This document shows, in pieces, positions 42,080 to 58,648 of a stretch of DNA of 64,000 bases (position 1 is the stretch's first letter; the number at the start of each line of letters is the position of its first letter). The DNA comes from Eubacteriales bacterium. Its GTDB lineage: Bacteria; Bacillota; Clostridia; Oscillospirales; CAG-272. Location: contig JBGVRO010000010.1 of assembly GCA_045128515.1 (NCBI GenBank), forward strand, positions 4,489-68,488. Reading direction: 5' to 3'. A model generated the notes under the pieces. It made no database searches, was not told the DNA's origin, and saw nothing but the letters and a program-made list of their open reading frames with translations. The position numbers and the translations under genes are program-made.

Positions 42080-43078
42080 TTAGTTGTAAACGTATGTATT
42101 CAAAAACTCCCATATTTTCTCTGCGGGAATAGCATAACTGATATCGTTGTCACCGGTCGAGCCCGCATAATTAACGCCCACAACGTCAAGGTTACTGTTG
42201 AGCAATGGACCGCCGCTTGATCCTCCCTTGATGTCGGCATTGTGTCTTATTACGTCAAAGGTTACGTTGCTTTCATTTTTAGGTGTATCGTCAAGAGTTA
42301 TGGCCTTGTATTCCTTTACTTTACCAAAGGTAATAGTATTAGTCTGTCCGTCGGGTGTGCCGAGGGAAATTACGTCATCCTGAAGATGGGGATTTGTTCT
42401 CAAAATTTCAAGAGGCTTTACCTCTGTGCTACCCGATTTGAAGTAAATGCAGGCTAAATCGTAGTCCGCAGACTTCGCTTCTTTATTTTTGCTCGGGTTG
42501 GTGTAAAGCTGTGCTGTGTACTGATTTCCCTTGTAATCGGTAACCCTGATCCTCATTTTGTCATATCCGGACGGCCCTTCCACTACGTGGCAATTTGTCA
42601 GTATGTAGTAATATCCGTCGTTTTCGCTGATGCAGAAGCCGGATCCGAGATACCAACCGGTCTTGTCGGTTTCTATCATTCCCCAAAGGACCTCATTGTA
42701 ATACTGGCACTCGATCTTAACGATGCTTTTCATAGCATTTTGAGAAATTTCATTGGTGATCTTCCCGGCATCAAGCTCAAACTTTGCATATAAGGTCAGA
42801 TCCGAGTGTACCTCCTCCGAAAAGTCGTATCTCTCGGTGCACGCATAGTTGGAGAACCAACCGAGAAAAACATAGTTTTTCTTTACAGGATCAGCGGGCA
42901 TTGAAACCCTGTCGCCGTCATTGACGTAAATCACGCTTGAGTTGTTAGCGTTGTATACGAAGGCTACCTCCCAGCTACCCTTGGGGCGGTCTGACGCACC
43001 GTCATTTTTGCCACAGGATATCATCAGGCAACAAACGAGGCAGCTAAGGATCAAAAGCAAAAGGAACTGTTTCTTCAT
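42080..43078 (-). CDS. Trypsin-like (S1) serine protease lipoprotein with a Listeria-Bacteroides repeat
   Basis: Lipobox LMISCG. The repeat is Y.FLGWF.........DF...V..DLTLYAKF. The catalytic triad contexts are TNCHVV (His), DLACIYF (Asp) and GGSSGGPL (Ser). Confidence 0.8.
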   Translation of the reverse strand: MKKQFLLLLILSCLVCCLMISCGKNDGASDRPKGSWEVAFVYNANNSSVIYVNDGDRVSMPADPVKKNYVFLGWFSNYACTERYDFSEEVHSDLTLYAKFELDAGKITNEISQNAMKSIVKIECQYYNEVLWGMIETDKTGWYLGSGFCISENDGYYYILTNCHVVEGPSGYDKMRIRVTDYKGNQYTAQLYTNPSKNKEAKSADYDLACIYFKSGSTEVKPLEILRTNPHLQDDVISLGTPDGQTNTITFGKVKEYKAITLDDTPKNESNVTFDVIRHNADIKGGSSGGPLLNSNLDVVGVNYAGSTGDNDISYAIPAEKIWEFLNTYVYN

Positions 43079-43372: not shown

Positions 43373-43981
43373 ATGTTCGGTAGCATAAAGGAAGTATGGG
43401 GCGGTGAGATGAAGAAGATCACAATGTCTATTATGATAATTTTTCTTTGCCTTACGTCTGTTGTCGGCGTTACTTGGGCGTTGTTTACACACAGCAACGA
43501 CGGCAAGATCGGTATAAATACAACCAGCGGCTATATTGACATGGATATCGTTGATACGAATGGGGACTCACTTGTTGATAAGGTTCTTGAATTTGAATCC
43601 GGTGTCGACAACAGAGAAACGATTTACTTTGAACCTGGCGCAACCTTCCATACCCAGGGCTTTAAGGTTGTGAACAACGGTAATATAAATGTTAATTACC
43701 GTGTTTACATCAGTAACGATGAGACTGAAAACATGGAGTCATTCAACAAGGCGTTCGAGCTTTGGATCTGCGAGGATCTGAGCAAGATAAACGAGGCGAA
43801 GAAGATAACCGAGTTTGAGGGAACTCTCGGTCCTGAGGAAAGCGGCAAGGTTTACTATCTTGTAATCAGGATGAAGGAAAGCGCAGGCAATGAATTCCAA
43901 AACAAGGTTTACAGCGGTATCGGAATAACCGTGTACGCAGTACAGGGTAACGTTAATATAAACAGCATTCCGCACGATTAA
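43373..43981 (+). CDS. TasA/camelysin-like small subunit with a SipW-class signal peptide
   Basis: ..IIFLCLTSVVGVTWALFTHSNDG...TSGYIDMDI, and the domain-closing motif AGNEFQNKVYSGIGITVYAVQ. RBS ggaggtga. Confidence 0.8.
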   Translation: MFGSIKEVWGGEMKKITMSIMIIFLCLTSVVGVTWALFTHSNDGKIGINTTSGYIDMDIVDTNGDSLVDKVLEFESGVDNRETIYFEPGATFHTQGFKVVNNGNINVNYRVYISNDETENMESFNKAFELWICEDLSKINEAKKITEFEGTLGPEESGKVYYLVIRMKESAGNEFQNKVYSGIGITVYAVQGNVNINSIPHD

Positions 43982-43990
43982 GGAGTTTGT

Positions 43991-45202
43991 ATGGAAATAA
44001 AAAACAATAAAGTACTTAACATCATACTCAAGGTTGTAACGGGCTTACTGATAGCATTCACCGTATTCATTATGATCTTCACCGTCGTATCGGTTACCAC
44101 CCTTGACAAAAATGACCGTAACCTTTTCGGTTTCAGATTCTACATAGTACAGACCGACTCAATGAGTCCCTCTGAAAACAATGCTCATCTCGACGTTCAT
44201 TTCAGCGCAGGTGACATCGTTGTTATCAAGAACGTTAAGAATCCTACTAAGCTTGAGGCAGGAGATATCATTGCTTTTATCTCGACTAACAAGGTAAGCT
44301 ACGGCGAGACCGTAACGCATATGATCCGTAAGCCTACGGTTGATAAGGATGGCAGAACCTGTTACGTTACTTACGGTACTAACACTAATACTGATGATGA
44401 AGCGTGCGTGTATCCCGAGTACGTAATCGGCGAGTACGCAGGCAAGCTTCCCGGTGTCGGACACTTCTTCGCATTCGTTAAGTCCACCCCCGGTTACATC
44501 TGCTGTATTTTGATTCCTTTCCTGCTTCTCATACTTTATAACGGCGCTGACGTAATCCGCCTGTTCAGAAAGTACAAGAAGGAGCAGACCGCTATACTCG
44601 ATGCCGAAAAGGCTGAGATCGCCGCAGAGAGAGCGCGTAATGAGGAAATGCTTCGCGAGCTTCTTGCTCTTAAGAATCAGCTCGCAGGTAATGCTCCTGC
44701 CGAGGCACAGCCCACAGCGACTGCCGAAGCACCTGTCACAGAGACAGCGCCTGTCGTAGAAGCGGCTCCCACGGTTGAGGAGAAGCCCATGACAGAGGAG
44801 GAGATCGCTGCTCAGAAGAAGGCTGAAGCTGCTCGCAAGCGTAAGGAAACCCTCGCTCGCAAGAAGGCAGAGGCAGAGGCGGCAAAGCTCGCTGAGGAGG
44901 AGGCTGCACGTAAGGCTGCCGAGGAAGAGGCACAGCGTCTTGCTGATGAGGCTGCCGCACAGAAGAAGGCTGAGGCTGCTCGTAAGCGCAAGGAAACTCT
45001 TGCTCGTAAGAAGGCAGAAGCTGAGGAAGAGGCGGCACGTGTTGCTGCTGAAGAAGAGGCACAGCGCCTTGCTGATGAAGCTGCCGCACAGAAGAAGGCT
45101 GAAGCTGCTCGCAAGCGTAAGGAAACCCTCGCTCGCAAGAAGGCAGAGGCAGAGGCGGCAAAGGCTGCTGAAAACAATCCCGACGACAAGTCGGACACTT
45201 AA
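43991..45202 (+). CDS. sipW: Archaeal/ER-type (S26B, SipW-like) signal peptidase I with a ~210-aa Ala/Glu/Lys-rich C-terminal tail
   Basis: N-terminal TM, the Ser box VQTDSMSP, GDIVVI and GDIIAF boxes, the His box VTHMI and a second TM (YICCILIPFLLLILY). Three tail repeats of AAQKKAEAARKRKETLARKKAEAE follow. Confidence 0.8.
   Translation: MEIKNNKVLNIILKVVTGLLIAFTVFIMIFTVVSVTTLDKNDRNLFGFRFYIVQTDSMSPSENNAHLDVHFSAGDIVVIKNVKNPTKLEAGDIIAFISTNKVSYGETVTHMIRKPTVDKDGRTCYVTYGTNTNTDDEACVYPEYVIGEYAGKLPGVGHFFAFVKSTPGYICCILIPFLLLILYNGADVIRLFRKYKKEQTAILDAEKAEIAAERARNEEMLRELLALKNQLAGNAPAEAQPTATAEAPVTETAPVVEAAPTVEEKPMTEEEIAAQKKAEAARKRKETLARKKAEAEAAKLAEEEAARKAAEEEAQRLADEAAAQKKAEAARKRKETLARKKAEAEEEAARVAAEEEAQRLADEAAAQKKAEAARKRKETLARKKAEAEAAKAAENNPDDKSDT
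44807..45165 (+). repeat. Three tandem coding repeats (periods 144 and 129 bp) in the SipW tail
   Basis: Copies begin at 44807, 44951 and 45080. The first and third are nearly identical at the DNA level (gaagaaggctgaagctgctcgcaagcgtaaggaaaccctcgctcgcaagaaggcagaggcagaggcggcaaag). Confidence 0.85.
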
Positions 45203-45278: not shown

Positions 45279-47252
45279 ATGACCAATTTAAAGGCAACTA
45301 AGAAGGCGTTGGTAAGCAGCGTTCTCGCGCTTGTTATGTGCTTTACAATGCTTCTTGGTACAACATTTGCATGGTTCACCGATTCTGTAACCAGCGCAAA
45401 TAACGTAATTCAGACCGGTACCCTCGACGTAGGATTCCAGTGGGCTGAAGGTAATGAAGATCCTTCTACCGCTACTTGGAACGATGTTGAAGGTGCACTC
45501 TTCAACTATGCTAACTGGGAGCCCGGTTATGCAGTAGCAAAGCATCTCAAGATTTCCAACAATGGTTCTCTTGGCCTTAACTACAAGGTTCGTATCTTCG
45601 CAAACGGCGTTGTTAGCGACCTTGCTGAGGTAATCGACGTTTACGTTGTAGCAGGTGCTGTTGATGCAATGGATCGTAACACTCTTGCAGGTCTTGAGCC
45701 CGTTGGTACTCTTACTCAGGTTCTTCTTGCAAGCGGCGCAGACGATGCTGAGAACGAAGCTGACATGGGCTATGATGTTAGCGAGCTTATCAAGGGTTCT
45801 CTTGATGTTGACGCAGACGATCACGTTTACACTCTCGTTCTTAAGATGAATGAGAACGCAGGTAACGAGTATCAGGATATGGATCTCGGCTGTACCTTCT
45901 CCGTTCAGCTCCTTGCAACTCAGATGGCAGCAGAAGAGGATAGCTTCGACAATCAGTACGATGCAGTTGTTCCCAACGAGGAAATTCCTGCAGCACTTGT
46001 AAGACCTCTTGATAATCTCTCTGTTGTAGTTGGCGAGCACGTTGATTACGGCGATATGAGTGGTAATCTTACTCTTGACACAGGCTACAAGTTCCAGCCT
46101 ACCGCATCGCTTGAGGATAATGAGAAGTCTCTGTACAGACATTGGATAGCAGATTACGTTGTCTATGCTGATGCAGACGTTCCCGCAAATTCCATGGCAC
46201 TTGCAGGTTACTACAAGTTATTCTGCGAAGGATTTAACGACGGTAACTGGATAGCACTTAGAGCTGAGGAAGATATCGCGGCAGGAACAGAGATTCGTCT
46301 TGTAGAGGCAATGGGCGGAGGAGATATTTTTGTATCTTACAAGGATATTTGCCAGTGGGGTGCTGACGGATATGGATTCCAGTGTGGCGCAGTTGACCTG
46401 ACCGGCGAGAACATGGGTACTACCATCACTGTTGAGCTTCGTATTTACGAGACAACAGCTGATTGGACTGATTCCCGCGCTTCCAGCGAAGAGACCGGCA
46501 ACTACATCACAATCGGCAAGTTCGAGTACACCTTTGGTGTTAACACCGCAGAGAAGCTTGAGTATGCTCTCACCAACAGTGGCGAGTACAAGCTCACCTC
46601 TGACATCGAGCTTGATGCAGACGATACTATCACCGTTCCTGCAGATGTAACTACCGTTATTGACCTTAACGGCTATACTATTACTGCAGTTTCCGATGAT
46701 GCAGACGAGAACGATGACGGCAAGCTCACTTCCGCTGATAACGAGGTTGCAATCGACGTGAGAGGTAATCTCACTGTTAAGAACGGAACAATCACCATGG
46801 AGCATAAGTCTGACAACTTTGGTTGGAACGCATGCACCGAGGTGTTCTACGTTGCATTTAACGGAACTCTGAATGTTGACAATGCAGTTATTGCAAACCT
46901 TGGCGGATCCGACATGGCGTATGCGATTGACATTGTAAACGCAACTAACGCAACCGTAAACGTAACTAATTCCACTCTCAAGTCCACATATATCCCCGTT
47001 CGTGTATTCAACAATGGCACCGGTATGAACCACGTAACCATTAAGAATACCAAGCTTGACGGTGTAAGCCGTGCTTTCTGGGTACATATTTATTCCAATG
47101 CGGATAACAGCGGCAAGGGAATTAAGGATGCAACTCTGGATCTTGATATCTACGGAAACGGCAATACCTTTATTGCAAAAGATCCCGCAAGAATCATTGA
47201 GTTTGGATTTACGGACGAAATCAACTTCGACGCAAACGGCAACCAGATTTAA
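45279..47252 (+). CDS. TasA-like N-terminal domain fused to a beta-helix passenger (657 aa)
   Basis: Signal ..LVMCFTMLLGTTFAWFTDSVTSANNVIQTGTLDV and domain end AGNEYQDMDLGCTFSVQLLATQ. The C-terminal half is rich in beta-helix-like N.T(V/I).N repeats. Confidence 0.8.
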   Translation: MTNLKATKKALVSSVLALVMCFTMLLGTTFAWFTDSVTSANNVIQTGTLDVGFQWAEGNEDPSTATWNDVEGALFNYANWEPGYAVAKHLKISNNGSLGLNYKVRIFANGVVSDLAEVIDVYVVAGAVDAMDRNTLAGLEPVGTLTQVLLASGADDAENEADMGYDVSELIKGSLDVDADDHVYTLVLKMNENAGNEYQDMDLGCTFSVQLLATQMAAEEDSFDNQYDAVVPNEEIPAALVRPLDNLSVVVGEHVDYGDMSGNLTLDTGYKFQPTASLEDNEKSLYRHWIADYVVYADADVPANSMALAGYYKLFCEGFNDGNWIALRAEEDIAAGTEIRLVEAMGGGDIFVSYKDICQWGADGYGFQCGAVDLTGENMGTTITVELRIYETTADWTDSRASSEETGNYITIGKFEYTFGVNTAEKLEYALTNSGEYKLTSDIELDADDTITVPADVTTVIDLNGYTITAVSDDADENDDGKLTSADNEVAIDVRGNLTVKNGTITMEHKSDNFGWNACTEVFYVAFNGTLNVDNAVIANLGGSDMAYAIDIVNATNATVNVTNSTLKSTYIPVRVFNNGTGMNHVTIKNTKLDGVSRAFWVHIYSNADNSGKGIKDATLDLDIYGNGNTFIAKDPARIIEFGFTDEINFDANGNQI

Positions 47253-47400: not shown

Positions 47401-50400
47401 ATGAACCCCACCCAAAAATCATTTCTGACAAGCATCGTTGCTTTGGTGCTCTGCCTTACCATGTTCCTCGGCACAACATTTGCATGGTTCACCGACATTG
47501 TGGTAAGCGGCGGCAACATTATCCAGTCCGGTAAGCTCGATGCCGAGATGTATTGGTCTGACGAGTACCTTGCCTCCACCGACAGCGGTTGGACACAGGT
47601 TAAGGACAACAAGCCAATATTCACCTACGATAACTGGGAGCCCGGCTATACTGAAATTAAGTATATTAAGGTAGCAAATGCCGGCAACCTTAACTTCAAG
47701 TGGAAGCTTTCCATTGAGGCAGAGGGCAAGGTAACAGACCTCTCCGACGTTATCGACGTTTATTACGTTAATCCCGTAAACGGTGAGCTTACTAAACAGG
47801 CTCTTGCAGCACGCACTCCTGACGGAAAACTCACTGACGTTCTTGCAAACAAGACCGCTACCGAGGGCGATCAGCTTACTCCCGGCGGATCTGTTGTTCT
47901 CGCAATCGCGTTCCAGATGGATAAGCTTGCAGGCAACGAGTATCAAGAAAAGTCCCTTTGTGATAAGGGCTTCTCGCTTAAGCTCCTTGCAACTCAGGCA
48001 ACAGGCGAAAACGACAGCTTTGACGATCAGTACGACAAGGAGTCCGAATGGCCCGAAATTCCTTCCGCAGGAAACAACGCATCTGCTGACGTTCCTACCG
48101 ATGCGAACGGTGTTGTTACAACCGAAACTACCATTACCGGCAACGGTATGAGCGCAACCGTTCCTGCAGGTACTCAGCTTACCCAGGGCACAAACAAGCT
48201 GACTCTCAGCGTTAACAACGTAGAGGACAGCAAGGCAAACGTAACTCTTGCTGAAGGCGAGGAGCTTCGTGCTCTTGACGTACATATCTCCGGCGTAGCC
48301 GAGGGTAACACCACTCCTATTGCCGTAACTCTTACCGAGGCATTGCCCAAGGGTCTTAATATCGGTAACTACACCCTCCACCACGTAGAGGATGGACAGA
48401 CCGTTCCGATGACTCTGCTTGCCGACGGCGCAACTCCCGTACACAACAACTTCACCTACGATCCCGTAACAGGTGACGTAACCCTCTATATGGCATCCTT
48501 CTCGGAGGTTGACCTTATTGCAGAGCCTGCAAAGTGGGAGGGTAAAAGAGATTACTCTTGGTACACAAATGCTGTTGCTCCTGTTGACGGTGAGGCTGTA
48601 ACCGAGTACGTAATCGCAAACGCAGACCAGCTTGCAGCCTTCAGCGCAATCGTTGGTGGAATGGACGGTCAGACTCGCGACTCTTTCGTAGGTAAGACCG
48701 TAAAGCTCGTTGCCGACATCAACCTTGGCGACAAGGAAAGCGAAAATAACCCCGAAGTTATCTTCTATCCCATCGGCTACTACAACTCCGAGGGAACTTA
48801 TGAAAGAACTAACACCGCCATTACCTCCGGACTTAGAATCTTCGAGGGTACATTTGACGGTAACGGTCACACCGTTTCTAACTTCTACCACAACACATGG
48901 GAGATGAAGGGTGACCACGACTGGTATTCACCTGAAGAACAGTATTACCGCGACGGTATGGGTCTGTTCGGTCGTGTTTACAAGGGTACTGTAAAGAACC
49001 TTACTGTAAAGAACTTCTCCTCTGACGGTGAGATCGCAACCACAGGCGTTATCGCTGCTTATGCAGACGGCGCAACATTTGAAAACATCGCAATCTTCAA
49101 CTGTAATCCTCGCGTTTACAACATCGGTAACGGTGGTATTGTAGGCTGCGTTGGTTGGTATGCAAAGGATGCTGGTTTAACAACTACCTTTAAGAATATT
49201 ACAGTTGATAATTCTAACAAGATCTCCGCACTTTGGGGCTCTTATGACGTAGCTTGCGGCGGTATCGTTGGTCAGTACTATCCTACCAGCGGTCAGACCT
49301 CTGCAGGTACTCCCAAGAACGCAGGTATCTCCTTCGAGAACTGCCACGTTTCCGCAGTTATGGACGTTTATAACGACGTTTGCGCAAACTATCAGTACTA
49401 TGCTTACCGTTACACCGGTATGCTTATCGGTTCCGTTCGTGAGAATGTAACTATTGACGGTCACTCCTACCCCAAGATGGACGGCATCACAGCAAAAGAT
49501 TGCACCGTTCACTTCGGCACATGGAATGATTACTACTATTGTGAGATTATCGATAATACCACAGCATCTTATACCCACGATTATCAGATGAGCCGTCTTA
49601 CCGAGATCAAGGCCATCGATGGCACAACCATCACCTATCTCGACGGCACAACAGGTACCGTTCCTGCATCCGGCAGAGCCAACTACGTTATCGTTGACTA
49701 CACCAAGGGACACGGCACCGAGAACGCAACCTGCTATCACTTTAAGGATGGAGCAGTTTGGACTCACGATATGGGCGGTGCTCATGACGGCACCGACGGC
49801 GGAAAGATAATTGACGAGAACGGTGACGGTAAACCCGACCTCAGAGAAGATAAGCAGCACATCTACCTCGAATTCAACAACCTCGTAACCGGCTACGGCT
49901 GGGGTGTAACATCTAGAGGATTCAATAACCTCAACGGTGTTACTAATCTTGATATTCAGCAGGGCGAACAGGAATCTTCCGTTGAAAAGTTTGAGGATGC
50001 AGGATATACTCCTAAGGATTACAGACCTGGTGAAACAATCACGATCGGAGATCTCTTTAATGTAAAGGGTAATGCTGTTATCAACGGCAAGTCTGTATAT
50101 GTTTCTGTTTCTCCTGTAACTGAGGACGATAAGGTAAGCGCTACCTTCCAGCTCGATCCTGATGATTGGACAAAGAGCACTATCACCTTCGCGGCTGACT
50201 CTACCGGTACCGCAAAGGTAACTATTACAGATTATATCTTCTGTACTCCTACTACAATCTACCTTAACGAGGAAGAAGCAAAAACAAAGTTTACTGCAAA
50301 TAGTGTTTCTGCACAGGAAGCATATACACAGATTACTCTTAGCACCATCTTTGGTGTTAAGAACGGTGCAACAATCGGTAATGTTACCGCGACTGTAACT

Positions 50401-53295
50401 GATCCTAACGGAAACAAGATTACAGTTACCGGAACAAGCTCCGATTGGACATCCAAGACAATAGATCTCATTAAGGAAGGTAAATGGACAGTTTCTATTG
50501 TTGACGACGATAAGTATTGCGCAGCAACTGAAGCAACCTTCACTGTAGATAAGGTTGATAAGTTTACTAAGAAGTTTGATAAGAACTTCCTCTATCGTGT
50601 AGGTAACGAAAATACTGTTGATATCGGTTACATCTTTGGTGAAATCGAAACAGTGGTTGGACTTTCCTCTGTAAATGTTTCTATTACCAATGTTGCAGGA
50701 AATGCAAGCGGAAACTTTACTGCTAACACTTCCGACTGGACAAAGGGAACAATTCAGTTCACCGGCACAGGTGTTGTTAAGGTGACTATTAGTGCTGATG
50801 GAGCAAATCCGATTGATATCAATCTTGAGGTTATTGATGCAACCAACCTTACAAGTGCAACCGGCACAACCACCGGTGGAAACTTTGTACTTGTTAAGGA
50901 CGTTAACACAGCCACTTATGTGAACTATTGGAACTGTACTATTTACGGTAACGGATTCACTTATTCGCTTAATGGTGCTCCCACTGATTATAATTCAAAG
51001 CAGGGACACGGTATTCTCATTACAAAGAATGCAACACTTGATAATCTTGTAATTGTTGGTGATGTATACAATTCTTATGGTGCTTACACAAATCAGAATT
51101 GTTACAATACGGCAGTTGACGTAGTTGGAGATACCACAATTCAGAATTGTTATATCGCTAACTGTGCAGCTCCTGTCAAGGCTCGTAGCAACGTTACAAT
51201 TAAGAACTCCACTTTGTATGGTGGAACAGTGGCGAACCTTCTTATAATGTCCGGTACTGCAACCCTTGAAAATGTAACCACCGCTAACTATGATGATGGC
51301 AGAGCGCTCGTTGGTATGGGTATAGTAATCCACTCCGATGCTACTGAAACTGCAAAGCTTGTTCTTAACGGAACCCTCACACAGTACAATTTCATTAGCG
51401 AGAGTAAAGTTCCTACAGATACATACGCAAAGAATCTTCATGACGCGATGTTTGGTAGTAATTGCAGTCAGTATCAGTTCGGCACATCACCTAATCGCTA
51501 TGTTAATACCGGTATTATCTCCTTAACATCTACATTCAACGGAGAGGATATTACCGATAACGCTAATACAGGTTATGTTGGTAAGTCTGTTTCTGCAAGT
51601 GGTTTCAATGGATATGTTTATACACAACTGAATACAAGCGGATCAGTAAATAACAATTATCCCGAGTATAAGCCTACCACTCAGGGAGCTGTTCCTCCTA
51701 GCTATTCTTTCGATTACACTAACAAGAACTATATAGCTAAGACAGAGGGCTCTAACGACTACTGTTACGAAGAGAATGGTAGAGTTAATATCTCCGTGGA
51801 TCAGGGCGATACTTTCAATTGGGATACATCTATTCTTACAATTGGCAAGGGTATAACAAGCTACACTGTTTCAATGAATGGCACCGACTACACAGGAAAG
51901 TCTATCGCATTCAACACAGCTGGTGATTACATTGTAACGTATATTTACACAGATGAGAATAACTACAAGCTTGATGAAAACGGTAATATAACTACATACA
52001 GTGTAACTCACACAAAGACAGTTAATATTACTGTTGCCGTAGTTGAAGCGACTACCAAGCATGCAGAGTTTACTTTTGGTAGCTCCAATACAGCTTCCAC
52101 AACCGTAACAGTCGGAAATAACACCTACGTTATGCCTAATGTGAGTGGCACGTCTAGTACTATTGGAAGCACTACGGTTAGTGGTCAGACTATATACTAT
52201 CCTATTGTAGAAATCATCATGTCTGACGGAAAGACTAGCCATACGAGCGGTTGGTACGCTTATTTCCCTGTATTTAGCGGCGCGGTGACTATTACCGATT
52301 ACGCTAATAACGGAACAGGCGATAAGATGACACCTTACGATGGTTCTACAACTACTATGCCTAGCGATCTTTCGATAGTTGGTGATCCTACACAGCTCTT
52401 TAAGTATCAGTCGTCTTCTGCGGCAGGCAGCACGCCTGTTGTTAAGAACAACAAACTCGTATATAGTTCCGCTAAAATTGAGGCAAAGCGTAGCGAATAT
52501 AACACTGTAATTCAGTATAGCTACACCGATAACGCTGGTGCAACTTACTACTATTATATTGGCTATCATGCACCTGCACAGTCGTACACAAGTTGCGTCA
52601 CCCCCGACACTCTTGTAACTCTTGCAGATGGTACTCAAGTACGTGTTGATTCTTTGACTGGTAATGAAATGTTGCTTGTGTGGAATCATCAGACTGGTGC
52701 TTTGGAGAGCGTTCCAGTAGCATACATTGTAGATCATGAAGGCGTTGTTTCTGAACAAGAAATTATCCGTCTGAATTTTGCTAACGGCAAAACGGTAAAA
52801 ATCATTGGGGAACACGTATTCTTTGATGCAACGCTCAACAAGTACGTTGCAATCACCTCCGAAAATGCAGAGTCATTTATCGGTCACAAGTTTGCCGCTC
52901 TTGATGCTAACAGCGAAACCTTGGAAATGGTTGATTTGATTTCTGTTGAAAGAGAAGTTAAGGAAACCACTGTTTATGAGGTAGTTTCCTACAAGCATTT
53001 GACATGCTTCACCGAGGGAATCCTTTCTACTTCTGCTTACCTTGATCCCTTGCTCAATACATTCGATATTGATGCGGATACAATGGCATACGATGCAGAG
53101 CTTGTACAGAAGGATATTGAAACCTACGGACTTTACACTTATGCAGATTTTGAAGACCTGATTTCTGAGGAAGCATTTGAACTTTACAATGCTGCATATC
53201 TTAAGATTGCAATTGGCAAGGGATATATCACTTGGGATGACATTCTCGAAATGATAGATATCTACTTTGATGTAGAAGTTCAGCCTATTCAGTAA
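47401..53295 (+). CDS. Giant (1964 aa) TasA-like-domain protein with GLUG/beta-helix and Ig-like passengers and a C-terminal Hint domain plus an ~87-aa tail
   Basis: Signal ..LVLCLTMFLGTTFAWFTDIVVSGGNIIQSGKLDA and domain end AGNEYQEKSLCDKGFSLKLLATQ. FEGTFDGNGHTVSN is a GLUG-type repeat. There are three ..DWTK.TI.F...G.AKVTI modules. The Hint domain starts at Cys1732. Confidence 0.82.
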   Translation: MNPTQKSFLTSIVALVLCLTMFLGTTFAWFTDIVVSGGNIIQSGKLDAEMYWSDEYLASTDSGWTQVKDNKPIFTYDNWEPGYTEIKYIKVANAGNLNFKWKLSIEAEGKVTDLSDVIDVYYVNPVNGELTKQALAARTPDGKLTDVLANKTATEGDQLTPGGSVVLAIAFQMDKLAGNEYQEKSLCDKGFSLKLLATQATGENDSFDDQYDKESEWPEIPSAGNNASADVPTDANGVVTTETTITGNGMSATVPAGTQLTQGTNKLTLSVNNVEDSKANVTLAEGEELRALDVHISGVAEGNTTPIAVTLTEALPKGLNIGNYTLHHVEDGQTVPMTLLADGATPVHNNFTYDPVTGDVTLYMASFSEVDLIAEPAKWEGKRDYSWYTNAVAPVDGEAVTEYVIANADQLAAFSAIVGGMDGQTRDSFVGKTVKLVADINLGDKESENNPEVIFYPIGYYNSEGTYERTNTAITSGLRIFEGTFDGNGHTVSNFYHNTWEMKGDHDWYSPEEQYYRDGMGLFGRVYKGTVKNLTVKNFSSDGEIATTGVIAAYADGATFENIAIFNCNPRVYNIGNGGIVGCVGWYAKDAGLTTTFKNITVDNSNKISALWGSYDVACGGIVGQYYPTSGQTSAGTPKNAGISFENCHVSAVMDVYNDVCANYQYYAYRYTGMLIGSVRENVTIDGHSYPKMDGITAKDCTVHFGTWNDYYYCEIIDNTTASYTHDYQMSRLTEIKAIDGTTITYLDGTTGTVPASGRANYVIVDYTKGHGTENATCYHFKDGAVWTHDMGGAHDGTDGGKIIDENGDGKPDLREDKQHIYLEFNNLVTGYGWGVTSRGFNNLNGVTNLDIQQGEQESSVEKFEDAGYTPKDYRPGETITIGDLFNVKGNAVINGKSVYVSVSPVTEDDKVSATFQLDPDDWTKSTITFAADSTGTAKVTITDYIFCTPTTIYLNEEEAKTKFTANSVSAQEAYTQITLSTIFGVKNGATIGNVTATVTDPNGNKITVTGTSSDWTSKTIDLIKEGKWTVSIVDDDKYCAATEATFTVDKVDKFTKKFDKNFLYRVGNENTVDIGYIFGEIETVVGLSSVNVSITNVAGNASGNFTANTSDWTKGTIQFTGTGVVKVTISADGANPIDINLEVIDATNLTSATGTTTGGNFVLVKDVNTATYVNYWNCTIYGNGFTYSLNGAPTDYNSKQGHGILITKNATLDNLVIVGDVYNSYGAYTNQNCYNTAVDVVGDTTIQNCYIANCAAPVKARSNVTIKNSTLYGGTVANLLIMSGTATLENVTTANYDDGRALVGMGIVIHSDATETAKLVLNGTLTQYNFISESKVPTDTYAKNLHDAMFGSNCSQYQFGTSPNRYVNTGIISLTSTFNGEDITDNANTGYVGKSVSASGFNGYVYTQLNTSGSVNNNYPEYKPTTQGAVPPSYSFDYTNKNYIAKTEGSNDYCYEENGRVNISVDQGDTFNWDTSILTIGKGITSYTVSMNGTDYTGKSIAFNTAGDYIVTYIYTDENNYKLDENGNITTYSVTHTKTVNITVAVVEATTKHAEFTFGSSNTASTTVTVGNNTYVMPNVSGTSSTIGSTTVSGQTIYYPIVEIIMSDGKTSHTSGWYAYFPVFSGAVTITDYANNGTGDKMTPYDGSTTTMPSDLSIVGDPTQLFKYQSSSAAGSTPVVKNNKLVYSSAKIEAKRSEYNTVIQYSYTDNAGATYYYYIGYHAPAQSYTSCVTPDTLVTLADGTQVRVDSLTGNEMLLVWNHQTGALESVPVAYIVDHEGVVSEQEIIRLNFANGKTVKIIGEHVFFDATLNKYVAITSENAESFIGHKFAALDANSETLEMVDLISVEREVKETTVYEVVSYKHLTCFTEGILSTSAYLDPLLNTFDIDADTMAYDAELVQKDIETYGLYTYADFEDLISEEAFELYNAAYLKIAIGKGYITWDDILEMIDIYFDVEVQPIQ
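52594..53033 (+). other. Hint (hedgehog/intein-like, BIL-type) domain inside the 1964-aa CDS
   Basis: Block A C-VTPDTLVTLADGTQVRVDSL, block B-like KIIGEHVFF and a block F/G-like segment TTVYEVVSYKHLTCFTEGILSTS. The terminal His-Asn and a +1 nucleophile context are absent. Confidence 0.7.
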
Positions 53296-53395: not shown

Positions 53396-53920
53396 GTGAG
53401 CTTTTTTGAAAAACTCAAAAAGCCTGAGGAGGCTGAGGATGAAGTCGTTACCGACAAGGCATTTATGCGTGGCATAATTACATCATTCTTTGCAATCGCT
53501 ATGTGTATTATTATGCTGGGCGCTTCTACTTACGCCTGGTTTACCACTTCTATTCAGAGCACTCAGACAATATCCTCTGCCGTTTATGTTTTAAGTATTA
53601 AGGTCGATGGTGGCGGTGAGATACTTAGTCCCACAACGTATAAAGGTAACGACGTCTACACCCTTGAGGGAGGTAAGACCTATACCGTAACCGTAACCGC
53701 CGTCGAGGAGGGTACTACCGGTAACACAGGCTACATAAAGCTTGAGATCGGTGACCAAAGCTTTGTTTCAGATCAGATTGACCGTGGAAAAACGATCACC
53801 TTCACCCTTACGTTTACCGAGGAAACCGAGGTAACGATTGTTGAGGGCTGGGGAACGTCCAGCGCCGAGGTCAGAACGATCCATAACAATGGCAAATACG
53901 ATAACAATAACCTAAAGTAA
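53396..53920 (+). CDS. TasA-like small subunit (174 aa) with a SipW-class signal peptide
   Basis: GTG start 8 nt after aggagg; ..FFAIAMCIIMLGASTYAWFTTSIQSTQTISS. Confidence 0.72.
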   Translation: MSFFEKLKKPEEAEDEVVTDKAFMRGIITSFFAIAMCIIMLGASTYAWFTTSIQSTQTISSAVYVLSIKVDGGGEILSPTTYKGNDVYTLEGGKTYTVTVTAVEEGTTGNTGYIKLEIGDQSFVSDQIDRGKTITFTLTFTEETEVTIVEGWGTSSAEVRTIHNNGKYDNNNLK

Positions 53921-54454: not shown

Positions 54455-55249
54455 ATGGACAAAAATTTACTTAAAAAGATCGGGGATATTGCAGCTAACG
54501 TTGTAATGTACATTTTCCTTGCCGTGTGCATTCTGTCAGTTATTATGACCGTGTTCGGCAAGAGAGATGCGGACGGCACCGTCGAGATCTTCGGACATCA
54601 GATGCGAATCGTAGTTTCCGACTCAATGGCAAAGTCCGAGTTTACCGACGTTTCGGATTACAAAATTAAGCATATTCCCATTAACACTATGGTGTTTATC
54701 AAGCTTGTGCCTGATGATCCCGTCCTGGCGGATCAGTGGTATGACGATATTGAGATCGGTGACGTTCTCACCTTCCGTTACGTATACACAAATCAGGTTA
54801 CGATAACCCACCGTGTTGTTGATATTAAAGAAAAGGATACCGGCGGCTACCTCATTTATCTTGAGGGAGATAACAAAAATTCGGACTCCGAGCTGCTTAA
54901 GCAGACGATCGATACCTCGATCCCCAACAGCACCAATTACGTAATTGGTAAGGTCGTTGCAACGAATTTCCTGTTCGGTTTATTCCTTAGCATTATTAGA
55001 AAGCCTATTGGCGCAATTTGTATTATCATTCTTCCTTGTTTCATCATTATTCTGATCGAGGTGCTTAAGATCGTGCGTGTGCTTAACGCCGACAAAAAGC
55101 AGCAGAATCAGGACGAAATGGCGAAAAAGGAAAGCGAGCTTGAGGAGCTTCGTCGTCAGCTTGCAGCTCTGCAGAACGCACAGCCTGCTGAAAATTCTGA
55201 TGAGCCGACACCTGCAAGTGAATCTAACGAAGATAATAAGGAGGTATAA
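54455..55249 (+). CDS. sipW: Second SipW-like (S26B) signal peptidase I
   Basis: N-terminal TM, Ser box VVSDSMAKS, GDVLTF, His box ITHRVVDI, GDNKNSD, a second TM and an acidic/coiled tail. The start is at the ATG at 54455 (MDKNLLKK). Confidence 0.8.
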   Translation: MDKNLLKKIGDIAANVVMYIFLAVCILSVIMTVFGKRDADGTVEIFGHQMRIVVSDSMAKSEFTDVSDYKIKHIPINTMVFIKLVPDDPVLADQWYDDIEIGDVLTFRYVYTNQVTITHRVVDIKEKDTGGYLIYLEGDNKNSDSELLKQTIDTSIPNSTNYVIGKVVATNFLFGLFLSIIRKPIGAICIIILPCFIIILIEVLKIVRVLNADKKQQNQDEMAKKESELEELRRQLAALQNAQPAENSDEPTPASESNEDNKEV

Positions 55250-55822
55250 ATGTACACTTTTATTATCATATTCTTGATTATAGCCACTATTTTCGCTATC
55301 GGAACGCTTATTTACGTTGTTGCCGATACTATCCTCGATCTCTTCAGAAAGAAGCCTGAGGAAGAAGAAAAGGTGGTTGAACAGCCCCCTGTTGTTGTGG
55401 TTGTTCCTGAACCCGAGCCTGAACCTGAGCCTGAGCCTGAGCCCGAACCCGAGCCCGAGCCTATACCCGTACCCGTAGTTATTCCTGTTCTTGAGGTAGA
55501 GCAGATCGACGCGGTTGAGGCAGATGCTATGATTCCTGACGAGGTTGCAATGGGATCTGTCCGCTACGAAAGCGGTGCAGGACACGGTAAGAAGGGTGAA
55601 ATTAACATCGGTGTTATTGACCAGCACTTTGAAGATGGCGAGGTCATCACCATTCAGGCACTTAAAAATAAAAATCTTATCAGCAGAAAGGATTGCCGCA
55701 TAAAGGTACTTGCCCACGGCATCCTTAGAAAGAGCTTCACCGTTAAGGCTGAAGCATTCTCGGTCGAGGCAATTAAGATGATCGAGCTTATGGGCGGTAC
55801 AGTAATAATTTTAGTTGATTGA
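55250..55822 (+). CDS. Membrane-anchored protein: N-terminal TM, (EP)n linker and a domain homologous to the C-terminal half of ribosomal protein uL15
   Basis: TM FIIIFLIIATIFAIGTLIYVVA followed by RKK, then (PE)x10. The segment KKGEINIGVIDQHFEDGEVITIQALKNKNLISRKDCRIKVLAHGILRKSFTVKAEAFSVEAIKMIELMGGTVIIL follows. It aligns with B. subtilis RplO ..[73 protein letters not shown]. Confidence 0.75.
   Translation: MYTFIIIFLIIATIFAIGTLIYVVADTILDLFRKKPEEEEKVVEQPPVVVVVPEPEPEPEPEPEPEPEPEPIPVPVVIPVLEVEQIDAVEADAMIPDEVAMGSVRYESGAGHGKKGEINIGVIDQHFEDGEVITIQALKNKNLISRKDCRIKVLAHGILRKSFTVKAEAFSVEAIKMIELMGGTVIILVD
55406..55476 (+). repeat. Hexanucleotide (GAR-CCY) coding microsatellite encoding (EP)n
   Basis: cctgaacccgagcctgaacctgagcctgagcctgagcccgaacccgagcccgagcct... 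Confidence 0.85.
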
Positions 55823-55878
55823 TATTATTGCAATAATGCAATATTTCAATATTCAACTGTTTGAAAGGAGGACAAACA

Positions 55879-56544
55879 GTGAGCCACATTAAAACAAAAA
55901 GAGCATTGCTGGTTTCCAGCGCAATAATCCTTTTGTGTATGACGATCATCGTTGGCGCTACGTACTCTCTGTTTACAGACCGCTTCTCGGTGGGCAACCA
56001 TCTTGTAGCAGGCGAGCTTGAGATTTCGCTGCAGAGAACACGCCTTGCATATATGTCTCTTGACGATGCAGGCTATCTTAGCGAAACCGTAAATAACACA
56101 GTGTATGATTTCACCGACAGAACGTCAAACAACATCTTCGGATTAGACGCAGGCAATATCAGAATTGCTCCCGGTAGTTACTTCGAGGCTGACCTTCGTG
56201 TTATCAACGATAATGCCGAGAATGCCAATTACTACTCAAACGTAGCGTTTACATACGATGTTACGTTCGTTCTTTTGGAAGGTAACCCCTACCTCGCTAA
56301 TCAGATGCAGGTAACCGTTATCGACCACTTGGGCAACGAAAAATCCATGCGACTTGACGAAGCCGTTAATGGACACGTTTTTGAGGCAGGCACTCTTGAA
56401 GCAGGCGAGATCGGTCAGAACTTTACCGTACGAGTTGAGTTCCTTGACGACGTAAACTACCCCGACGAGTTTGACAACGACCTGGCAAAGGGCGGAGAGC
56501 TTATCTTCGACCTTGTTGTATCCGCTGTTCAGGCGACCAAGTAA
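55879..56544 (+). CDS. TasA-like small subunit (221 aa) with a SipW-class signal peptide
   Basis: GTG start 6 nt after aaggagga; ..IILLCMTIIVGATYSLFTDRFSVGNHLVAGELEI. Domain end DNDLAKGGELIFDLVVSAVQ. Confidence 0.75.
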   Translation: MSHIKTKRALLVSSAIILLCMTIIVGATYSLFTDRFSVGNHLVAGELEISLQRTRLAYMSLDDAGYLSETVNNTVYDFTDRTSNNIFGLDAGNIRIAPGSYFEADLRVINDNAENANYYSNVAFTYDVTFVLLEGNPYLANQMQVTVIDHLGNEKSMRLDEAVNGHVFEAGTLEAGEIGQNFTVRVEFLDDVNYPDEFDNDLAKGGELIFDLVVSAVQATK

Positions 56545-56665: not shown

Positions 56666-58648
56666 ATGAAAAAGAAAGTTTTAATGTCCTCGATCGTGAC
56701 AATCGTTCTTTGTCTCACATTGATCGCAGGATCCACATTCGCACTTTTCACTGACAAGAATGAGATCAACATTGCAGTTACATCCGGTAAGGTTGATATG
56801 ACAGCGAAGCTCGATGGCCTTACAGCTTACTCTGTAAGACCTGCTACAGTAGCTGAACAGGTTGCTGCAGAGAGAGGCGAGCTCACTCTTATTGAGGATG
56901 AGTTCAACGGCCTCTATGTATATGAGGAAAAGACTAATGGCGTGTTCGCTAACGGCGGAACCGCTACTCTTAATGACAAAGGAAACACTTTGGAATTGAA
57001 TCTCGTTACCCCCGGTGACAAGGTTGCTTTTGATATCGTTGGTACCAACGAGAGCGACGTTACCACCCAGTATCGTTATATCATCGAGTGCGTTGGCGGT
57101 CAGACTCTTATGAGTGGCCTTCTCGTTACTATCAATGGTGTTACTTATGATTACCTCGGCTCCTATACATCTCCTTGGATGACTCTTGAGCCTACCGATA
57201 AGGTTATCGACAATGTTCCTGTTGTTATCGAACTTCCTGTTAAGGCAGGTAACGATTACCAGATGCAGAAGACTGCGATCAAGGTTACTGTTGAGGCAGT
57301 TCAGGGCAATGCTGATGTTGCTGACAACAGTGTTCCTCTGGTTGAATACCTTAACGGTGTTACCGTTGAAATGGGCGACAAGCCCGTTTCCAAGGTTGGT
57401 GTTGTTAATACCAGCAATCTTGACCTTAATAACGGCACCATCGAGGTTGACTATGTTGGCTTCCAGAACTATGGCGAAGCTACTCTCACCAATGTTGAAA
57501 TTAAGGGCGGTACCTCCGGTACAGTTGCTTACGGATACGCACTTAACGCATACGCAGGTTCCAATACCGTTTTGAACAACGTTATCGTTGACTCCAACAA
57601 CGGCGGTGTCTCGGTTTCTGATGGCGGTCAGTTGACCTTCAATAGCGGTTCCGTAGAGGTTGACTCTAAGAGCACTTCCGGTCGTTATCTCTTCTACGTT
57701 GTAGGTGAGGATACTGTTGCTACAATCAATGGTGGTAACTTCGACTTTAACAAGACTCAGAACCAGAAGAGAGCTTACGCTTACGTAGGTGAGGGCGCAA
57801 CCCTTATCATCAACGGCGGTACATTCGGTACTGCATCCAGCAGAAGCGGTTATACCGCAGGTCTCCTTGGTGAGGGTGATATCATCATCACCGGTGGTAC
57901 CTTCGGCTTCAATCCTACCACTTGGGTAGCAAACGGTTGTAAGGTTGAAAAGATTGGTAAGAACTGGGTAGTTTCTTCTGACAATGCAACCTTGAATGAA
58001 GCAATTCAGAACGGCGATAAGGAGATTACTCTTGGTGCAGGTAGCTTCACTATGCCTGCTACTACCGGTGACGTAACCATTACCGGTAATGAGAATACCG
58101 TAATCACTATCAACAAGCCCACCGCTAACAATGTTACCATTAAGGGCGTTACCGTTGTTGGTTCCGGCAACTACACCGGTATTCAGCACAGCGACAAGGT
58201 TGTTTACGAGAACTGCGTAATTAAGGGCGTTCAGTTCCTCTATGCAAACGAGGTTGAATTTATTAACTGTGTAATTGATTTGACCGCAAAGGCAGATTAC
58301 ATCTGGACATACGGTGCTAAGAATGTTACCTTCGATGGCTGTACATTCAACACCGCAGGTAAGGCTCTTCTTATCTACTCTGAAGATAAGGGCCTTGAGA
58401 CAGTTGTAACTGTTAAGAACTGCACATTCAATGCTACCGCAAGCGCTCTTGCAAGCGGAGCAACTGCTGCAGCTATTGAGATCGACAGTAGTCTTTCTAC
58501 TAACGGTCACTACACTTTGATTACTGAGAACAATACCGTTGACTCCGACTTCTCCGGCGAATGGAGAATCAAGAAGTCCGGTACTGACAATACCACTGTT
58601 AATGGCGTTATTTATAACGCAATTACCATCGACGGTGTACAGCAGTAA
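56666..58648 (+). CDS. TasA-like N-terminal domain fused to a beta-helix passenger (660 aa)
   Basis: MKKKVLMSSIVTIVLCLTLIAGSTFALFTDKNEINIAVTSGKVDM and domain end AGNDYQMQKTAIKVTVEAVQ. Beta-helix-like repeats follow. Confidence 0.8.
   Translation: MKKKVLMSSIVTIVLCLTLIAGSTFALFTDKNEINIAVTSGKVDMTAKLDGLTAYSVRPATVAEQVAAERGELTLIEDEFNGLYVYEEKTNGVFANGGTATLNDKGNTLELNLVTPGDKVAFDIVGTNESDVTTQYRYIIECVGGQTLMSGLLVTINGVTYDYLGSYTSPWMTLEPTDKVIDNVPVVIELPVKAGNDYQMQKTAIKVTVEAVQGNADVADNSVPLVEYLNGVTVEMGDKPVSKVGVVNTSNLDLNNGTIEVDYVGFQNYGEATLTNVEIKGGTSGTVAYGYALNAYAGSNTVLNNVIVDSNNGGVSVSDGGQLTFNSGSVEVDSKSTSGRYLFYVVGEDTVATINGGNFDFNKTQNQKRAYAYVGEGATLIINGGTFGTASSRSGYTAGLLGEGDIIITGGTFGFNPTTWVANGCKVEKIGKNWVVSSDNATLNEAIQNGDKEITLGAGSFTMPATTGDVTITGNENTVITINKPTANNVTIKGVTVVGSGNYTGIQHSDKVVYENCVIKGVQFLYANEVEFINCVIDLTAKADYIWTYGAKNVTFDGCTFNTAGKALLIYSEDKGLETVVTVKNCTFNATASALASGATAAAIEIDSSLSTNGHYTLITENNTVDSDFSGEWRIKKSGTDNTTVNGVIYNAITIDGVQQ

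Follow-up and report, generated by a model that had tools for sequence, protein, structure and literature searches.

A Hint domain and conserved tail at the end of a giant secreted protein

The window analysed here, a stretch of 64,000 nucleotides from a bacterium of the Eubacteriales (contig JBGVRO010000010.1), carries on its forward strand a gene at 47401–53295 (stop codon included) that was delineated from the list of open reading frames (ORFs) and its translation, and that encodes a secreted giant protein of 1964 residues. The protein opens, at 47401–47538 (+), with a putative SipW-type signal peptide region (...LGTTFAWFTD), after which comes an N-terminal domain that resembles TasA/camelysin. 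Its last 233 residues (1732–1964), which we refer to as the cassette, consist of a Hint domain (residues 1732–1878; 52594–53034, +) and a conserved 86-residue tail (residues 1879–1964; 53035–53292, +), and the 1731 residues upstream are treated as the passenger. An initial annotation made from the letters alone had described a Hint-like module with blocks A, B, F and G but no terminal His-Asn, and the peptides that it quoted were recovered exactly on translating 52594–53295: CVTPDTLVTLADGTQVRVDSL beginning at Cys1732, KIIGEHVFF with His1805, and TTVYEVVSYKHLTCFTEGILSTS, after which the tail runs from AYLDPLL to VQPIQ. At the junction, the passenger side ends ...APAQSYTS (Ser1731), and the side of Cys1732 starts CVTPDTLVTLADGTQVR.

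Taken as a single sequence, the window protein is only suggestive of a Hint domain, as its scores lie below curated cut-offs and a search of PDB sequences gave nothing of relevance. The Hint model PF01079 is its best-scoring Pfam model at 23.9 bits (range 20–24; cut-off 29.7), the NCBIfam model TIGR01445 gives 20.1 bits (cut-off 24.5), and phmmer with the last 281 residues retrieved nothing relevant from PDB sequences, so that a family profile was required. A homology search with the last 251 residues yielded 83 proteins at approximately 90% query coverage and 35–81% identity, 42 of which match Pfam Hint (E<0.01, best 8e-9). When the family profile was compared with PDB sequences, it matched BIL2, a bacterial intein-like (BIL) domain of the Tetrahymena BUBL1 locus (6Y75/6TMM), along the whole Hint at E=3e-4, with hedgehog and DnaB inteins matching more weakly. 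An AlphaFold model built from the family alignment reached a predicted local distance difference test (pLDDT) score of 91.9 and a predicted template modelling (pTM) score of 0.88, and Foldseek related it to BIL2, to RecA, DnaB and DnaE mini-inteins, to the hedgehog structures 1AT0 and 6TYY, and to the Clostridium thermocellum BIL domain 2LWY, with a probability of 1.0 and a TM-score to target of approximately 0.8. Foldseek returned 63 matches in the PDB at E≤1e-3; each of the 50 listed is an intein, a BIL domain or a hedgehog structure, and the best have TM-scores to target of 0.7–0.83. Residues 1732–1878 are a genuine Hint fold, of the horseshoe-like beta type, and a member of the Hint superfamily, as the initial annotation had proposed.

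Within this superfamily the cassette Hint stands as a clade of its own in a Hint-only profile search, which reached classical pre-toxin Hint (PT-HINT) proteins only at E ~1e-4. We also observed a sister Hint clade (P0268, P0269, P0270) in which ...GYHRIYN... replaces EHGFFD and the domain ends ...NGILTSC[KR]LSNKY...; its tail is different, at approximately 40 residues, and has neither the YGLYTY nor the GKG motif.

Conservation was counted over 303 non-redundant modules pooled from all searches. The predicted nucleophile Cys1732 (codon 52594–52596, +), which lies on the C-terminal side of the candidate scissile bond Ser1731–Cys1732 and aligns with residue 1 of BIL2 and of inteins, is Cys in 295 of 295 aligned modules, and the first Hint residue is Cys in 194 of 195 proteins. 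The block-B histidine, His1805 (52813–52815, +), is retained in 302 of 303 modules; in the profile alignment EHVFF lies opposite HRFYD of BIL2, with the two histidines aligned. As these two residues are essentially without exception, the machinery for an N-to-S acyl shift is under strong purifying selection. Other conserved positions of the domain are Asp1809 (281/303), His1829 (277/303) and the block-F histidine His1866 (246/303). The residue preceding Cys is Ser, Gly or Thr in approximately 70% of members, and the linker before it is rich in Ser, Thr and Gly.

The BIL2 profile alignment, which ends ...GVLAH, agrees with the original assignment of blocks A, B, F and G; it pairs YKHLTCFTEGILST with NNHNFFANGVLAH of BIL2 and places Thr1877-Ser1878 (53029–53034, +) where inteins have their penultimate His and their terminal Asn. 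Across the family the penultimate position holds Met, Thr, Ile or Val, and the terminal one Pro (166), Ser (57), Thr (57) or Asp (12); not one Asn occurs there among the 82 modules counted exhaustively in the 83-member alignment, in keeping with the initial claim that the terminal His-Asn is missing. No member of the family thus has what Asn cyclisation requires, and classical splicing and Asn-driven C-terminal cleavage are therefore excluded. Nor did the junction between Hint and tail display any cleavage chemistry or conserved motif. Separately, a second Cys in block F (52990–53004, residues 1864–1868 through Cys1869; alignment position 155 or 156) is present in 63 of 82 modules; speculatively, it could form a redox switch by pairing with the catalytic cysteine.

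The tail is modelled as a beta-hairpin and four helices. Its near-invariant residues are D1905, Y1909, G1910, T1913, Y1914, F1926, K1935, K1940, G1941 and T1944, the two lysines being conserved in 289 (K1935) and 299 (K1940) of the 303 modules. It is about as well conserved as the Hint itself, with a mean pairwise identity of 49% against 47% and with 14 of 75 columns, against 19 of 143, in which one residue accounts for at least 90% of sequences. It is also acidic (median isoelectric point 4.05, net charge −10), is 16% aromatic, and contains no hydrophobic run longer than 7 residues. In the two-domain model the tail has a pLDDT above 95 and the junction approximately 96–97; modelled alone, the tail adopts a similar fold at 85.6, although its first ~10 residues are confident only beside the Hint (61 alone, ~97 in the full model). 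It is accordingly predicted to pack rigidly on the Hint.

A profile of the tail alone was searched against 1.84 billion representative proteins (clusters at 50% identity) and matched 2,230 of them at E≤1e-3, with 1,906 at E≤1e-10. The tail occupies the extreme C-terminus in all 150 matches listed, and a Hint directly precedes it, at a gap of 2–10 residues, in 217 of the 218 proteins long enough to judge. Over the 2,230 clusters it is uniform rather than polymorphic. Hint and tail are therefore an obligate, always C-terminal cassette. We found no relatives of the tail in Pfam or NCBIfam, none amongst PDB sequences with the tail profile, no Foldseek match in the PDB and only noise in BFVD, and its fold is thus an orphan in the libraries searched. 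A reading of the tail motif "VGKGxxT" as a helix-hairpin-helix or P-loop was dropped because it had no supporting model and the domain is strongly acidic.

Distribution and genomic context of the cassette

A scan of one genome per GTDB species identified 462 cassette loci in these species-representative genomes. The best 80 of the 462, from which taxonomy was taken, are essentially all metagenome-assembled genomes (MAGs) of uncultured gut and rumen Clostridia, with labels that include Clostridia, Eubacteriales, Oscillospiraceae, Christensenella-like, Coproplasma, Faecalimonas and Subdoligranulum CAG:314. Many of the database relatives are fragments from short contigs; the few that are named are all called "hypothetical protein", and no description of the Hint-tail cassette was found in the searchable literature. 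A divergent stand-alone member of 285 residues was also observed in an Atopobiaceae MAG (P0076; locus L002, 10001–10858, +), where only ~50 residues precede the catalytic Cys. This leader contains LSDEFLEKVAGG, which resembles a double-glycine leader, and the tail is the most divergent seen, with IGEIPY instead of YGLYTY.

In approximately 90 host ORFs, ranging from ~300 to more than 3,500 residues, the cassette always ends 0–15 residues before the stop codon. The module had originally been placed in the context of a TasA/SipW-type system, a framing that does not survive the wider survey: only ~20 of the 90 hosts share that type of N-terminus, and the same cassette terminates unrelated passengers. 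These include subtilases, BspA-type leucine-rich repeat (LRR) proteins that also carry Flg_new repeats, proteins with a beta-helix and a lipoprotein, as well as proteins resembling type IV pilins. One of the latter, P0013, scores above the cut-off of a prepilin domain and lies in a PilB/PilT/PilC operon; loci L027 and L030 are similar, and two more were present amongst 30 diverse hosts surveyed. None of these 30 hosts has a recognised wall-anchor domain. Some genomes carry tandem arrays of two or three large genes, each with its own Hint and tail, as in L056 (2–3901, 4283–9364 and 9368–12607) and also in L061, L068 and L088.

Viral carriers are rare, being limited to three closely related contigs (L089, L090, L091) of the 2.9 million in IMG/VR. 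The phage host protein (L090, 4381–6684, +) is 767 residues long, lacks a signal peptide, is rich in coiled-coil and low-complexity sequence and has an intact cassette at its end; its gene directly follows those for the terminase small subunit, the terminase large subunit and the portal. A phage origin, or a role as a tail-spike chaperone, was rejected on the grounds that just these three contigs carry the cassette and that its host there is encoded in the head region and is no tail spike.

All-against-all clustering of the ORFs in 83 loci identified no partner gene that is consistently adjacent. Only SipW and small TasA-like proteins recur, at approximately 16 loci, and a neighbour family that appeared to span 54 loci proved to be antisense shadow ORFs of the cassette itself. 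A crude regular-expression search of 1.36 Mb of flanking DNA returned no LPXTG-type C-termini. In one Oscillospiraceae MAG, the gene directly downstream of one for a TasA-like giant protein with the cassette encodes a sortase (L046, 6107–6898, +; PF04203, E=5.7e-11), and because this genuine sortase gene adjoins a cassette gene, we rejected the general statement that the cassette replaces sortase. Collectively, the cassette is autonomous and independent of context, and it is not specific to TasA/SipW systems.

In the window itself, the cassette gene belongs to a fibre locus that encodes two SipW-type signal peptidases; signal peptides of the SipW type are present on at least seven of its proteins. 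The N-terminus of the 1964-residue protein falls just below the cut-offs of TIGR04088 (cognate_SipW; 15.9 against 19 bits) and PF12389 (Peptidase_M73; 20.9 against 22.5 bits), whereas the near-identical N-terminus of a 1121-residue paralogue exceeds both, at 27.4 and 31.4 bits. This inverted paralogue (58842–62207, −) is 48% identical to the giant protein across residues 1–835, where the similarity ends, and no second Hint or tail match occurs in the window, which upholds the earlier remark that the paralogue lacks the module. Orthologues of the giant protein were found in loci L009–L012, with modules that are 73–79% identical.

One SipW-type signal peptidase is encoded at 54455–55249 (+; mechanical ORF start 54338) and matches NF046067 (E=1.6e-14) and TIGR02228 (E=4e-10), in both cases below the curated cut-offs. 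The other, at 43991–45202 (+), scores 56 bits with TIGR02228 (cut-off 51.85) and matches NF046067 at E=1.3e-23; it has a C-terminal extension of ~200 residues that is rich in Ala, Glu and Lys. Six further proteins of 174–1121 residues have SipW-type signal peptides (...AWFT, ALFT or SLFT) and are encoded at 43373–43981, 45279–47252, 53396–53920, 55861–56544 and 56666–58648 (+) and, for the paralogue, at 58842–62207 (−). Some of them have TasA/camelysin-like N-termini, and together with the giant protein they make up an unusually large TasA-type gene cluster; an LPXTG motif is absent from all six. Also within the cluster, at 55250–55822 (+), is a gene for a 190-residue protein that has a membrane helix at its N-terminus and an (EP)n repeat, and whose C-terminal domain is matched by the models for ribosomal protein uL15 (PF00828, E=7e-14; TIGR01071, E=3.9e-12), an odd location for a ribosomal-protein fold. 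Just upstream of the fibre locus, the product of 42080–43078 (−) is a trypsin-like protease that is secreted and bears a Flg_new repeat (PF13365, E=4e-23; PF09479, E=2e-13).

Candidate chemistry and competing explanations

Where the terminal Asn is missing, Hint domains can still form the N-terminal thioester and cleave there, as in hedgehog and the B-type BIL domains (PMC7765530, PMC2362128). By analogy with these, we tentatively favour, at somewhat less than even odds, the reading that the cassette is a self-removing C-terminal pro-domain, in which an acyl shift at Ser1731–Cys1732 is followed by resolution of the thioester by water. The precursor would be exported via its SipW-type signal peptide; once the Hint has folded, Cys1732, aided by His1805, would attack the carbonyl of Ser1731 and generate a thioester through an N-to-S acyl shift. 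Because the C-terminal His-Asn is missing, neither splicing nor a C-terminal cut of its own would follow, and the tail would remain attached to the Hint. Resolution of the thioester would then part the 1731-residue passenger from a 233-residue Hint-tail fragment. We infer the formation and scission of the thioester from homology with inteins, BIL domains and hedgehog, and take Ser1731–Cys1732 to be a probable self-processing site.

In Hint folds the two termini meet at the active site, such that the start of the C-terminal flank adjoins residue 1, as is known from the geometry of inteins. The tail begins where these termini meet and is modelled as packed on the Hint, and for this reason its most plausible point of action is thioester resolution, the second step. 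We envisage it as a built-in subdomain beside the active site, with conserved residues that may lie near Cys1732, and it may control resolution either by activating the nucleophile or by setting the timing. Covariation between Hint and tail, assessed over 303 sequences (effective number ~198) by average-product-corrected mutual information, only weakly couples the tail helix at ~1928–1932 to Hint blocks F and G, amid a dominant subfamily signal. Both this role of the tail and the identity of the nucleophile are uncertain, and water is only narrowly favoured over an acceptor selected by the tail; hydrolysis fits the indifference of the cassette to its context, since pilin-like hosts and a non-secreted phage host carry it.

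Several observations weigh against self-removal by hydrolysis. No other recognised wall anchor is present on the sampled passengers of adhesin type, which leaves their retention on the cell after loss of the cassette unexplained. An 86-residue accessory domain with invariant polar residues is not obviously needed for plain hydrolysis, and the sister Hint clade manages with its short, different tail. In addition, the Thr of the block-B TxxH motif is swapped for Ile or Val, and the covariation signal is dominated by subfamily structure.

A possible but rather doubtful alternative is a cleave-and-transfer scheme in the manner of hedgehog Hog, in which the cassette would act as a "sortase in cis": after the same first step, the tail picks an acceptor, the C-terminus of the passenger becomes covalently attached to it, and the Hint-tail fragment is shed. 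The initial annotation had raised such covalent ligation of the protein by analogy with hedgehog, and the acceptor could be a wall or lipid precursor, a target surface, or a residue such as a lysine of a docking receptor or of a fibre subunit. Enzymes, giant adhesins and the subunits of fibres would thereby gain a self-contained equivalent of sortase anchoring that uses neither ATP nor a separate enzyme. The layout is that of Hog, a Hint with a helical accessory region (~97 residues in Hog) near the active site and likewise without a PDB homologue (PMC7906309, PMC2362128), and the top match, BIL2, resolves its thioester by a Lys epsilon-amine (PMC8616854). The obligate coupling of Hint and tail, the near-invariant polar residues K1940, K1935, D1905, Y1909 and T1944, the several copies per genome, some in tandem, and the position of the cassette at the C-terminal site usual for a Gram-positive sorting signal, on subtilases, LRR/Flg_new adhesins and giant fibre proteins that lack a recognised anchor in all 30 sampled cases and with no LPXTG-type C-termini picked up by the crude search of 1.36 Mb of flanking DNA, point the same way. 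Against this, no partner gene is conserved nearby and no acceptor was identified; the tail is acidic and soluble, without the membrane-binding character of a sterol-recognition region; and at least one carrier genome encodes a sortase right beside a cassette gene, so that the cassette is not simply a replacement for a missing sortase. Moreover, no cell-wall acceptor could be common to the pilin-like hosts and to a phage protein that lacks a signal peptide, and an acceptor in the cell envelope therefore cannot be universal. A lysine closer at hand is offered by the conserved K1940 and K1935 themselves, either of which might attack the thioester to form an internal isopeptide, as at the BUBL locus, and leave a branched, uncleaved protein with Cys1732 as a free N-terminus. 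The near-invariance of both lysines, the proximity of the C-terminal flank to residue 1 and the Lys isopeptide of BIL2 (PMC8616854) are all compatible with such a product, but it would be without evident benefit, and the BUBL intein is subsequently excised via Asn, which is impossible here; we consider this very unlikely.

Other readings assign the tail a role apart from the thioester, or dispense with the chemistry. The tail might dock or oligomerise as a handle for retention or assembly, much like a dockerin or the self-cleaving chaperone domain at the C-terminus of a phage tail spike, and hold or nucleate the precursor until hydrolysis at the Hint frees the mature passenger in a timed shedding step. 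A small acidic helical module at the C-terminus of varied secreted proteins of gut and rumen Clostridia, with no fixed neighbour, does have a dockerin-like distribution, and many passengers are long, repeat-rich or beta-helical. True docking modules, however, are not tied to one partner domain, whereas the tail is never seen apart from the Hint, nor fused to a different domain; it also has no dockerin or Peptidase_S74 match in Pfam and no fold relative, and it is modelled with the Hint as a compact monomeric unit, all of which makes a handle unlikely. Release of the tail as a small effector, the other function suggested at the outset, would make the module a polymorphic-toxin cassette, and pre-toxin Hint domains do immediately precede the C-terminal toxin domains of large secreted proteins, including phage MuF-type carriers (PMC3482391), just as one protein from a phage head-gene region bears the cassette. 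This is nonetheless the least probable of all the readings considered, and the release of an effector is not borne out: the tail is uniform over all of its clusters and fused to the Hint in all but one of the proteins that could be judged, tandem paralogues all have the same tail, the junction has neither an Asn nor other cleavage chemistry or motif, and no immunity-like gene is conserved downstream. The window protein also has no Pfam PT-HINT match, and PT-HINT proteins, which end HN-C, are reached only at the distant E-value given above. Lastly, the Hint could be catalytically dead and serve solely as a structural or binding domain without any processing, as its scores below the curated cut-offs of Pfam and NCBIfam and the missing block-B Thr and block-G His-Asn might imply. 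That Cys and the block-B His are essentially invariant over ~300 modules averaging 47% pairwise identity is hard to explain without catalysis, and we regard a dead domain as very unlikely indeed.

Relation to known Hint and sorting systems

The Hint-tail cassette constitutes a family that is not described in the searchable literature and is present on thousands of surface proteins of uncultured gut Clostridia. Among uncultured Clostridia of Christensenellales- and Oscillospiraceae-like type, it marks a whole class of fibre subunits, enzymes and giant proteins of the cell surface. These proteins currently carry "hypothetical" labels, and if the cassette is cleaved, their annotated mature C-termini would be off by 233 residues. 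A compact extracellular tag that cleaves or ligates itself would also be of interest for protein engineering. More broadly, a large bacterial family that shares the two-part logic of hedgehog with an unrelated accessory domain raises the question of whether bacterial Hint chemistry serves beyond self-cleavage; were transfer to take place, the cassette would be a bacterial counterpart of hedgehog Hog operating over thousands of proteins of gut Clostridia.

Hint domains are known in four main guises, as inteins, hedgehog Hog, BIL domains and pre-toxin Hint. In the searchable literature, a dedicated accessory region that steers the thioester to a chosen nucleophile is described for hedgehog only, and it is Hog that the cassette most closely recalls in construction. 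Both are C-terminal pairs of a Hint of ~150 residues, counted from the nucleophilic Cys, and a directly following helical accessory region of ~90 residues without a PDB homologue; both lack the terminal Asn, so that the N-terminal bond alone is, or in the cassette would be, broken; and PF01079 is the best Pfam model for the cassette, with 1AT0 and 6TYY amongst its strong fold matches. Unlike Hog, the cassette is bacterial, scores below the PF01079 cut-off and does not conserve the Thr of TxxH. To our knowledge, no sterol is to be expected in the hosts that carry it. Its tail is acidic and soluble and has no sequence match beyond its own family, and it is thus not a hydrophobic, membrane-associated region; in human hedgehog, the sterol-recognition region, helical and ~97 residues long, also adjoins the active site and has no homologue in the PDB (PMC7906309).

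BIL domains, which cleave themselves as the cassette is predicted to do, resemble it in being non-mobile Hint domains in variable secreted bacterial proteins, and BIL2 is its best PDB match by both sequence profile and fold. A-type BIL domains differ in having a conserved C-terminal His-Asn, which is missing from the cassette. B-type BIL domains likewise lack the C-terminal motif of inteins (PMC7765530), but their model, Hint_2 (PF13403), has no match at E≤1 to the window protein; elsewhere, a distant relative (P0263) has a precomputed PF13403 assignment, and the match to the phage member is confined to block A and, at 23.2 bits, falls short of the cut-off of 28.4. For no BIL type do the reviews PMC7765530 and PMC2362128 describe a conserved accessory domain that obligatorily follows at the C-terminus. 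PT-HINT domains are similarly placed near the C-termini of very large secreted or surface proteins, with autoproteolysis proposed (PMC3482391), but they keep the His-Asn and the +1 nucleophile (P0277, ...LVHNC) and precede hypervariable toxin domains accompanied by immunity genes, whereas the C-terminal domain of the cassette is invariant and without a conserved immunity gene. PF07591 gave no match. From class 1 inteins, which end in His-Asn and are followed by Cys, Ser or Thr at position +1 of a C-extein that continues the host protein, the cassette differs in having no His-Asn, no C-extein, as the tail is followed by the stop codon, and no endonuclease domain.

A sortase works in trans, on a short motif that precedes a membrane anchor, and proceeds via a thioester. 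The analogy with sortase and LPXTG signals is functional only: both are C-terminal elements on many unrelated surface proteins within one genome, and both would place a thioester at the new C-terminus of the passenger (see also PMC8225981). In the cassette, however, the Cys is supplied in cis by a folded domain, and transfer to an acceptor is putative. Judged by its domain layout, the cassette is a bacterial module of Hog-like build, a Hint joined to an accessory region of orphan fold, that lies outside the narrower Hint families.

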